A stretch of DNA of 39,530 nucleotides from a virus. Taxonomy: Duplodnaviria > Heunggongvirae > Uroviricota > Caudoviricetes. The stretch lies in IMG/VR virus record IMGVR_UViG_2718218228_000004; one strand, 5' to 3'. Numbering within the stretch: position 1 is the first letter of the stretch; each line of letters begins with the position of its first letter. Shown in pieces: positions 6,001 through 9,000 of this stretch. Made by a program: the position numbers.

Positions 6001-9000
6001 GGGAATCTGTAGATCGCCGCAGAGCAAAAAATGGCGATAGAGAATACATGGCATGGGATATGGCGCTTGGCTGGATTATCTGGTGTCACCGCGCCGCCAT
6101 GCTTCAGGCTGGAAACTTTCGGGAAAATAAGGGTTCGTCAACCAATAATTTTCGGATAATCTCGGAAACGTCAACCAACTCTCCGGCAATCCCTGATGAG
6201 GTGTTGTCCGCAATCCTGAAGGTCGCCAGGCTTCGTGCAGATTTCGATGCTTCTGAAGTGGACAGGCGAGGTATCGGTAGTTGTCTGGATGAGGCCGAGC
6301 AAGAACTTATCGTTACCATTAACGAATACGCCAGTCAGATCGCAGTAGAAGCGACACAGGGGGAGAACCAATGAGCCGGCCAGATGCATTTGCAGGCGTT
6401 GCTATAGCTATTGCTTTTCTAGTATATGTTATTTGTCGGTGGGGGTAAAAACGTTCGCCGGGATTCACACCAAGGGAGGGAATATGTCGGATGATATTTC
6501 ACTGGTAATGGAAGGCGCTCTGGCTGTTATTGCTGTTGTGGGTGTTTACTGCCTGGTTGTGTTTTTGATGGAGCGCCTGGGGAACTGAATTCATTCCGTA
6601 TGGGAATTCCCATATCGGGCAAAACGGTTTGCTGTAAAGCGAGAGTTAAGTAGAATTGCTGCGGGTGCTTGAGGCTGTCTGCCTCGGGCATGCCACCGTA
6701 AGGCAGACAGAGAAAAGCCCCAGTTAACATTACGCGTCCTGCAAGACGCTTAACATTAATCTGAGGCCCAATCTATGCTTCACAAACGTAGGTTAGCCTC
6801 TTACGCGCCGAAAGGCAAGGAGAAGCAGGTTATGAAGCAGCAAAAGGCGATGTTAATCGCCCTGATCGTCATCTGTTTAACCGTCATAGTGACGGCACTG
6901 GTAACGAGGAAAGACCTCTGCGAGGTACGAATCCGAACCGGCCAGACGGAGGTCGCTGTCTTCACAGCTTACGAACCTGAGGAGTAAGAGACCAGGCGGG
7001 GGAGAAATCCCTCGCCACCGCTGATGTGTCAGGCATCCTCAACGCACCCGCACTTAACCCGCTTCGGCGGGTTTTGTTTTTTCTGGTCGTTCTGGTTTAC
7101 AATCCATCCGTCAGCCTGAACAACTGGCACCTGCTGCGCCAGCAGAGAAAACAGATGGCGCACGATACCAAATTTTACAATTCGGATAACTCTGCCGCCC
7201 CTGCCAGCAGGCACGGGCGGCGTTCTCATGCATTCAAATCTGACTGGTATCAGCACGACCCCTGCACCGAAGAACAGGCTGAATGGCTGATTCAGTGTTA
7301 CCGCAGGCGCGGATACGAGGTTAAGAAAGCCCTCAGTCTCGATTATCGTCACTGGATAATCTCCGTCAGGCTTCCTTACTCCGAACGCCCACCGCGTCCG
7401 TCCCGCACATTCCAGCAACGCATCTGGAGGTAACGTGCGGGTATTACTTCGACCTGTTCTGGTACCGGAACTCGGGCTGGTGATCGTTAAGCCGGGCCGT
7501 GAATCCATGCCGGTATTCCACAATACCCGGGTACTGGTGGAGCCGGAACCGAAAAGCATGCGTAATCTGCCGTCCGGGGTCGTTCCTGCCGTTCGCCAGC
7601 CGCTGGCGGAGGATAAATCATTACTGCCATTTTTCAGCGACGAACGAGTGATTCGTGCTGCTGGTGGCGCTGGCGCACTGTCTGACTGGTTACTGCGCCA
7701 TGTTAAATCCTGCCAGTGGCCACACGGCGATTATCACCACAGTGAAACCGTCATTCACCGTTATGGTACCGGCGCAATGGTGTTGTGCTGGCACTGCGAC
7801 AACCAGTTGCGTGACCAGACCTCCGAATCACTTGAGCAACTTGCTCACCAAAACCTGTCAGCATGGATGATTGACGTCATTCGTCACGCAATGAATGGCA
7901 CACAGGAGCGTGAATTATCGCTGGCTGAATTATCCTGGTGGGCGGCCTGCAATCAGGTGGTGGATGCACTACCTGAGGCAGTAGCGCGTCGTTCGCTGGG
8001 ATTACCAGCGGAAAAAATCCGCTCCGTATACCGTGAGAGTGACATCGTACCGGGAGAACAGACAGCCATCAGCATACTGAAGCAGCGCACAAAAAATATT
8101 GCGCTGCCACTTCACGTCCACCAGCAACAAAATCCACCACAGAAAAAAACGGTTGTCAGTATCGCCGTTGATCCGGAGTCTCCTGAATCGTTCATGAGGC
8201 GGCCTAAACGTTGCCGCTGGGTTAATGAGAAATACACGCGCTGGGTAAAGACACAGCCGTGTGCGTGTTGTGGTAAGCCTGCTGACGATCCGCATCACCT
8301 GATTGGTCATGGTCAGGGGGGAATGGGGACAAAGGCCCACGATATTTTCACGCTACCGTTGTGCCGGGAGCACCACAACGAACTTCATGCAGACCCGCTG
8401 GAGTTTGAGAAAAAGTACGGCTCTCAGATTGAGTTAATTTTTCGTTTTCTTGATCACGCCTTTGCGACTGGCGTGCTCGGGTAAAAGAGGTGACTGATGC
8501 TCATAGATTTGGTTTTACCTTACCCGCCGACGGTGAACACCTACTGGCGACGTCGTGGCAGCACATATTTTGTATCAAAAGCCGGTGAGCGTTATCGCCG
8601 GGCTGTGGCGCTTATTGTTCGCCAGCAGCGGCTGAAATTAAGCCTGTCCGGAAGGCTGGCGATAAAGATTATTGCCGAGCCACCGGATAAGCGCCGCCGT
8701 GACCTGGACAATATTCTGAAAGCGCCGCTGGATGCGCTGACGCATGCGGGGTTGCTAATGGACGATGAGCAGTTTGATGAAATCAATATTGTGCGCGGTC
8801 AGCTCGTTCCTGGTGAGCGGCTGGGGATAAAAATCACAGAACTGGAGTGCGCATGAATAACCACTATTTACAGTTTGTGCGTGAGCTGCTCATTATCGCT
8901 ACCGCCGATTTGAGTGGGGCAACAAAAGGTCAGCTTGAAGCCTGGCAGGAGAATGCCATGTTCGATACAGGGCGTTACAGGCGAAAAAAAATCCGGTACC

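Follow-up and report, generated by a model that had tools for sequence, protein, structure and literature searches.

A pair of short open reading frames (ORFs), ORF1 and ORF2, lies directly upstream of a hok/sok locus in a 39,530-nucleotide (nt) stretch of viral DNA (Caudoviricetes; IMG/VR record IMGVR_UViG_2718218228_000004), referred to here as the window. The reading we favour, with moderate confidence, is that they are two separate and genuine small genes, each encoding one membrane-spanning helix, and that their products are accessory membrane peptides rather than type I toxins. Conserved frames, start signals and stop position, together with ratios of non-synonymous to synonymous substitution (dN/dS) of ~0.1-0.25 in diverged relatives, lead us to read both ORFs as real protein-coding genes.

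Both ORFs are on the plus strand, and their existence and coordinates, first proposed in a sequence-only reading, were confirmed. ORF1 (6371..6448, with its TAA at 6446-6448) encodes the single-helix peptide of 25 amino acids (aa) MSRPDAFAGVAIAIAFLVYVICRWG. Its ATG at 6371 overlaps the TGA stop (6372-6374) of a 187-aa gene (5811..6374, plus strand) to give ATGA, and the last codons of that gene, ...QGENQ and stop, contain both this overlap and the ORF1 Shine-Dalgarno sequence (SD) GGGGGAG (6359..6365), 5 nt before the ATG. ORF2 (6484..6588, with its TGA at 6586-6588) follows after a non-coding spacer of 35 nt (6449..6483) in a frame one off from that of ORF1. It encodes the 34-aa peptide MSDDISLVMEGALAVIAVVGVYCLVVFLMERLGN, which has an acidic N-terminus and one helix, and its strong SD, AAGGGAGGG (6472-6480, including GGGAGGG), lies within the spacer.

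The hydrophobic single-helix character that had been proposed for the two peptides held up as well. Each contains one stretch of 17-19 residues with a mean Kyte-Doolittle hydropathy of 2.7-2.95. The six frames of the window together hold 244 ORFs of 20-60 aa with an ATG start, and in a ranking of these by their most hydrophobic 17-residue stretch ORF2 came first and ORF1 third; an adjacent pair on the same strand with such high ranks is not what chance gives.

Conservation, selection and translation of the two ORFs

Members of the ORF1 family are 25-27 aa long and share the motif M-x-W-P-E/D-A-F ... V-Y-x-I-C-R-W-x. The ATGA overlap and the SD precede ORF1 homologues after at least five different upstream gene ends, in contexts that comprise the window, two E. 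coli prophage types, gut-metagenome contigs (L084-L087), phages 933W and 606R7, and plasmids (L174 and L175); the position of the ORF1 stop codon is unchanged across all of them. DUF551 proteins end in a conserved PQEVNQ, whose codons, CCGCAGGAGGTGAATCAATGA, carry the ORF1-family SD. Phage 933W has a 27-aa homologue, MTWPEAFANVGTVMAVVLVVYSICRWR (L088 2001-2084, corresponding to NC_000924.1 58826-58909, minus strand), which overlaps the stop of ST933Wp77 in ATGA and is absent from the reference 933W annotation. It is ~58% identical in amino acid sequence to a 27-aa ORF1 allele (tblastn) and has the ATGA overlap, the C-terminal Y-x-I-C-R-W motif and the stop position in common with ORF1; the allele in the window is two residues shorter. 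The stop of the 933W ORF lies 41 nt before the hokW mRNA start; many Shiga toxin (Stx) phages have the ORF in this arrangement, likewise without annotation.

The ORF1 family also occurs in ~180 plasmid records, nearly all of them predicted to be non-mobilizable. On the two ~96-kb plasmids that we examined (IncY and IncHI1B replicons), the ORF1 homologue overlaps the stop of a DUF551-type or p77-like gene and has no hok downstream; it is thus the 3' end of the upstream gene that ORF1 accompanies, and hok is not an obligate companion. On the Salmonella IncY plasmid pCFSAN058545_02, an unannotated hydrophobic ORF of 40 aa, MSKVNVLIFSAIVGFGFSAGVQIYIAWGEIINYAWSCFIK (L174 1387-1509), lies ~100 nt 3' of the ORF1 homologue, at the place that hok occupies in phages.

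The ORF2 family divides into at least three branches, and its members nearly always directly precede the hok promoter. A second branch, denoted ORF2b, encodes 29 aa from a GTG start (MLVLKCALAIAAVMAIYCLAVVLMDRLSD); window-type ORF2 and ORF2b are clearly homologous as judged by their alignment score of 78, compared with 23 +/- 4 for shuffled sequences. The third branch, with an ATG start, is found intact on virulence plasmids of Shigella, where the adjoining hok leader has decayed. Its example on Shigella flexneri pCP301 (219920-220006, upstream of icsP; L256 901-987) is an intact 29-aa ORF2b homologue, MLVLKGTLAIAAVMTIYCLIVVLMERFSD, next to a decayed hok 5' leader with neither a hok ORF nor an Rfam sok match; 143 plasmid records, of which 124 are from Shigella, contain homologues of it. 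The SD and the position of the start codon are kept in all three branches, the codon being ATG in the window type, GTG in ORF2b and ATG on the Shigella plasmids. Conservation of the reading frames in related prophages had been set beforehand as the test that could refute the two genes, and both the frames and their translation signals proved to be kept.

Selection was estimated as dN/dS by the Nei-Gojobori method, with a binomial test for synonymous enrichment. Compared with the 933W-type, 606R7-type and gut copies, ORF1 gave rough values of 0.10-0.24 (p 0.0007-0.02), and 14 of the 26 differences in its diverged copies fall at third codon positions. Its alleles differ by an in-frame indel of 6 nt, and the replacements mostly exchange one hydrophobic residue for another. 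ORF2 gave similarly rough values of 0.15-0.21 (p ~0.002), and its other sense frames were without signal. Synonymous changes were enriched 2.5- to 4.5-fold in the ORF frames. Conserved start signals, conserved frames and purifying selection, which mark a genuine gene, are found for both ORFs.

Evidence that a paralogue of ORF2 is translated has been published. Hucker et al. 2017 (PMC5597208) reported XECs145, which lies in the Sp6 prophage of Sakai, to be a new small gene that is translated and has a predicted inner-membrane product. XECs145, now annotated as ECs_5710, contains the 34-aa ORF2 peptide with two substitutions. In lysogeny broth (LB), its RNA and ribosome-profiling (RIBOseq) signals were 79 and 346 reads per kilobase per million (RPKM), with a ribosome coverage value of 4.35 and 0.99 of the ORF covered; in brain-heart infusion (BHI), the corresponding figures were 121, 150, 1.14 and 0.84, and under combined cold and osmotic stress they were 73, 1.1, 0.01 and 0.37 (PMC5597208 table S2).

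Several points weigh against reading the two ORFs as genuine genes. The dN/dS values come from just 75-102 nt and from few diverged sequences. As expected, similar scores are given by the antisense frame with the same third positions; it has a stop for ORF2 and is free of stops for the ORF1 allele pair tested, so that conserved start signals and a conserved stop are also needed to make the coding case for ORF1. In the most frequent ORF1 allele the helix carries an Asp midway along its length, and in a few copies the start is lost or a stop is present; selection on ORF1 is therefore not absolute. The RIBOseq signal belongs to a 94%-identical paralogue of ORF2 in a multi-copy region, and the authors of that study called XECs145 from a longer upstream non-ATG start (54 aa), which, on sequence grounds, the conserved SD and ATG do not support. 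The same study ignored ORFs of <30 aa, so the 25-aa ORF1 was outside its range. Lastly, searches of Pfam (E <= 1), PHROGs, NCBIfam and PADLOC returned no family for either peptide.

A rival reading is that the ORFs have no function as peptides and that the DNA is kept as upstream sequence of the hok promoter, through recent descent or as recombination junctions, with the hydrophobic frames being incidental. Most copies do come from E. coli prophages and resemble one another closely, no relative was confirmed among 185,579 scanned species-representative genomes, remnants of ORF2 or ORF2b are retained beside hok, and some ORF1 copies are disrupted. Incidental frames are nevertheless hard to reconcile with the enrichment of synonymous changes in precisely the ORF frames, with a spacer that has diverged beyond recognition while the ORFs, SDs and stops are kept, with a start codon that varies between ATG and GTG yet remains at a constant position, and with the ribosome-profiling signal of the ORF2 paralogue. 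We consider this explanation very improbable.

The two genes differ in how far they were already on record. The segment 6371-6588 is 100% identical to Sakai prophage Sp14, one of several lambdoid prophages of Shiga-toxin-producing E. coli, O157:H7 PV15-279 being another, in which this identity is found. The description of both ORFs as unannotated stands for ORF1, which has no annotation in the Sakai and RefSeq records that name ORF2. It does not stand for ORF2, which is present as ECs_2755/NP_310782.1 (Sakai Sp14), as WP_001278460.1 (RefSeq) and as an uncharacterised protein in UniRef, and has been carried as a hypothetical protein with no function given since the Sakai genome. The 25-aa ORF1 allele was not found in a collection of 15 billion proteins, and alleles of 27 aa appear in databases sporadically, under the names "prophage protein" or "hypothetical protein" (e.g. 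AOM45384.1 and ASL59204.1). Clusters that join such 27-aa alleles with DUF551 proteins of 121 and 185 aa are clustering artefacts, the inspected DUF551 proteins being without the peptide. A literature search found neither the peptide sequence nor the locus tags in any paper; the hokW-sokW paper (PMC8621323) does not mention an upstream ORF, and the supplements of an Enterobacteriaceae microproteome preprint held no match to the peptides.

The ORF1-ORF2 cassette is present in 674 of 5426 complete E. coli genomes, or ~1/8, with a median of two copies and up to five, and is concentrated in Shiga-toxin-producing strains. A profile search of 1.84 billion representative proteins gave 15 matches, all of them close relatives except for the ORF2b branch at E ~1e-3, and the family-alignment scan of the 185,579 species-representative genomes gave 43 pattern-matched stretches, none of which was confirmed. 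Both families seem restricted to phages and plasmids from three genera, Escherichia, Shigella and Salmonella. Among the defence profiles of PADLOC-DB there was no meaningful match; that of ORF2 to Cmr5, at 13 bits, is at chance level.

The possibility of a single split gene

ORF1 and ORF2 might instead be the two halves of one two-helix gene of 72-74 aa, which a frameshift would have disrupted in this prophage or which ribosomes would normally read as one by a programmed -1 slip on the run of five G (6441..6445, plus strand) directly 5' of the ORF1 stop. Four protein clusters (P0034, P0035, P0037 and P0038) do contain undivided ORFs of 70-74 aa, and two fused copies are available with their DNA: one has a run of six G (L082, a metagenome contig) and the other a run of seven T with one extra T (L083). 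A P-site slip on the GGG before the stop would reproduce the junction of P0037 exactly. AlphaFold2 applied to this natural fusion predicted two helices, residues 3-35 and 41-73, at a pLDDT of 70 and nothing further.

The comparison of many copies argues for two genes. The ORF1 stop is kept in 84 of the 87 readable copies, including those of the window and its Sakai twin, and with the fused protein as query the split form was found in all 80 IMG/VR loci, in three different upstream-gene contexts. Both fused forms with DNA are homopolymer indels, which may have come from mutation or from assembly error, and three of the four fused proteins derive from assemblies of metagenomes or archived reads. 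Four metagenome contigs from the human gut (L084-L087) carry a diverged homologue that lacks the G run and whose ORF1 ends in TGG TTA TAA at the same position. There, ORF1 (MTLPDAFAIVGITIAIAIIVYSICRWL) overlaps the upstream stop in ATGA and is followed by a spacer of 33 nt that is unrelated to the 35 nt of the window except for the SD, AAAGGAGGG; ORF2 (MSDDILLAMEGALAVVAVMAIYCLVVFLIDRRGS) is in the same frame as its ORF1. With an unrelated spacer of different length and a changed frame relation, the spacer must be non-coding and the ORFs separate genes. Each family also occurs alone, ORF1 without ORF2 in 933W and on plasmids, and ORF2b without ORF1. On the DNA of the fused and the diverged copies we thus rejected a frameshifted or programmed-frameshift two-helix gene, which we regard as nearly excluded. 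The two genes do not appear as a duplication either: BLASTP gave no alignment between ORF1 and ORF2, and their Smith-Waterman scores were within the shuffle distribution.

An ORF of 249 aa, denoted B39, runs antisense across the region in one related Stx1 phage record and is probably spurious; it is not conserved in the window, whose minus-strand ORFs are pieces of 49, 67 and 72 aa.

Hok, toxins and other small membrane proteins

The hok/sok locus of the window (6663..6987, plus strand) comprises the hok leader with the sok region (6663-6837; Rfam RF01794, 115 bits), mok (6775..6987) and hok (6832..6987; Pfam HOK_GEF, 1e-23). A putative hok promoter (6629..6656, plus strand) consists of a -35 element TTGCTG (6629-6634), a 16-nt spacer and a -10 element TAGAAT (6651-6656), which would place the 5' end of the hok mRNA near 6663. 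The promoter was placed by reading of the sequence, by the start of the Rfam model and by alignment with 933W and other loci; it is not listed by a simple promoter scan.

The association of ORF2 with hok is close. Window-type ORF2 has hok ~245 nt downstream in 76 of the 78 ORF2-anchored loci with enough room, and from the ORF2b stop the 5' motif of the hok mRNA is exactly 42 nt away in 80 of 80 loci, in 72 of which a hok ORF was recognised. Such near-absolute linkage, which holds across diverged branches, would fit a protein-level partner of Hok, a third part of prophage hok/sok whose helix tempers or times the insertion or oligomerisation of Hok in the lysogen or at lysis. The ORF2 paralogue carries ribosomes in a lysogen, a state in which Hok has to be kept silent, and HokW has been reported to aid prophage release (PMC8621323). 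We regard such a partnership as possible but unlikely. Its more specific form, in which the ORF2-family peptide would be a dedicated and constitutively made component that acts on Hok as immunity or damping in the lysogen or as an aid to lysis timing, would explain the near-restriction of the family to sites upstream of the hok promoter; we hold it to be slightly more doubtful still.

What speaks against a partnership is that Hok evidently needs no ORF2. In a hok-anchored sample of 80 loci encoding an identical Hok protein, the upstream neighbour was classified as ORF1 only in 14, ORF1 and ORF2 in 7, a disrupted ORF1 in 3, ORF2b only in 12, remnants of ORF2 or ORF2b in 9, an unrelated multi-helix membrane gene in 15, and none of these in 14, with 6 unclassified. 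The same Hok is thus found with ORF1 only, with ORF2b only, with both ORFs or with none, without co-variation. Truncated ORF2 and ORF2b remnants adjoin intact hok, and, conversely, ORF2b has survived intact on virulence plasmids of Shigella where the adjoining leader has decayed and no hok ORF is present. Across a gap of 42-75 nt, linkage by descent alone is plausible, and ORF2 has no sequence similarity to Hok. The larger multi-helix gene (in L095, L097, L101 and 12 other loci), whose product has the C-terminus ...ALFLGVFMAVMCIEYWR, ends 89 nt upstream of the hok mRNA start; several unrelated kinds of membrane protein therefore adjoin hok.

The sequence-only reading had suggested that the peptides could be further toxins, regulators or exclusion factors. 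The last two roles are possible; a toxin role we now disfavour. As additional membrane-damaging or host-killing toxins, type I-like or Kil-like, they would have the appropriate size, a single hydrophobic helix and a site beside a type I toxin, and toxic genes are tolerated in phage early operons because these are repressed in lysogens. Neither peptide, however, matches Hok/Gef or any other toxin family. An Rfam scan of 5600-7500 gave sok (6663-6837) as the sole match relevant to toxin systems and none over either ORF, and the number of promoter-like sites over the ORFs did not exceed chance (3, against 2.0 +/- 1.6 expected). The silencing features of type I modules, antisense RNA and leader structure, were thus not detected over the ORFs by the Rfam and promoter scans, which leave room for an antisense RNA of an undescribed kind. 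The strong and exposed SD of ORF2 and the high ribosome occupancy of its paralogue in healthy growing cultures are the opposite of type I toxin silencing. Taken together, these observations make a toxin role distinctly unlikely.

ORF2 was also considered as a truncated Hok helix. Local Smith-Waterman alignments of ORF1, ORF2 and ORF2b with Hok were no better than those of shuffled sequences and BLASTP gave no alignment, and we rejected this reading.

The likeness to the Hok/Gef and Sok systems (PF01848 and RF01794, including hokW/sokW of 933W and Sp5) lies in small single-helix peptides at the same locus; in many phages the hok mRNA starts 41 nt after the ORF1 family and 42 nt after ORF2b. ORF2 and Hok each have a conserved Cys within the helix. 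Unlike Hok, ORF1 and ORF2 are without a periplasmic Cys-containing C-terminal domain and without a mok-like overlapping leader ORF; unlike hok/sok, they have no detected antisense RNA or leader with 5'-3' fold-back, and their translation signals are strong and exposed.

Another parallel is found in E. coli, where small inner-membrane proteins with one helix, such as MgtS, AcrZ, MgrB, CydX and KdpF, modulate larger membrane proteins. ORF1 and ORF2 resemble these in their length of 25-35 aa, in one hydrophobic helix with short charged ends and, for some, in being small cistrons of operons. They differ in that the E. coli proteins are encoded by core genes, whereas ORF1 and ORF2 are borne on prophages and plasmids and have no homology to curated families.

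On our favoured reading, both genes would share transcription with the accessory genes that the prophage has between its replication genes and Q. ORF1 would be the last cistron of an Ea22/DUF551-type block and is probably translated by termination-reinitiation of ribosomes that finish the upstream gene, since its ATG overlaps the upstream stop and its SD lies within the last codons of that gene. ORF2 would initiate independently from its own strong SD, including in lysogens. Both peptides are predicted to insert into the inner membrane, where they may modulate other membrane proteins or the state of the membrane.

Surrounding features and biological meaning

The cassette sits among prophage accessory genes between the replication genes and the antiterminator Q. 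The gene order is replication genes, several hypothetical genes, the 187-aa gene, ORF1, ORF2, hok, a 92-aa gene, DUF968, RusA and Q. The 187-aa gene matches phrog_14306 and phrog_660, and positions 6300-6354 are 87-90% identical to the 3' ends of EaA/ea22/DUF551 genes.

Between ORF2 and the -35 element of the hok promoter lies a hairpin (6596..6618) around the perfect 16-bp palindrome TATGGGAATTCCCATA (6599-6614). As RNA it has a folding energy of -18.5 kcal/mol (z = -2.4) and no U tract, and it was not called as a terminator; the palindrome could be an RNA-end or a protein-binding site. In four loci it adjoins hok with just the last ORF2 codons left. The 933W ORF abuts the hokW promoter directly, without ORF2 or the palindrome, whereas the window has both: spacer, ORF2 and hairpin are extra between the ORF1 stop and the hok promoter. 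The left-junction sequence GGGTAAAAACG recurs at the right junction as GGGCAAAACGG, and it looks as if spacer, ORF2 and hairpin had been inserted relative to the 933W layout.

Elsewhere in the window, a perfect inverted repeat of 1315 nt (12970-14284 and 16176-17490) brackets a segment of 1.9 kb (14285-16175). Each arm contains ORFs of 108 and 296 aa, and the arms look like two inverted copies of an IS629-like element of the IS3 family. Just within the bracketed segment, at 16038 on the plus strand, lies the ORF that ranked second of the 244 by hydrophobicity (43 codons, MSDKLITLAKILCVIVGISFSLMLVAICFSTAWRVLTLSWLVG).

The hok/sok locus is a textbook type I system, and work on its prophage copies, hokW/sokW among them, has treated these as loci of two parts under RNA control. 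Two conserved families of membrane micropeptides are recurrent immediate neighbours of such prophage loci. Of these, ORF2 was already in databases and its paralogue reported as translated; ORF1 is a largely unannotated micropeptide family that was missed even in the reference 933W record. The two belong to the familiar class of small hydrophobic peptides of prophages. An effect of either peptide on the action of Hok, on the timing of lysis or on lysogen physiology would change how hok loci are dissected, because constructs and deletions commonly cut through this region. If there is no such effect, the two peptides would be two further entries among the small membrane proteins of prophages.

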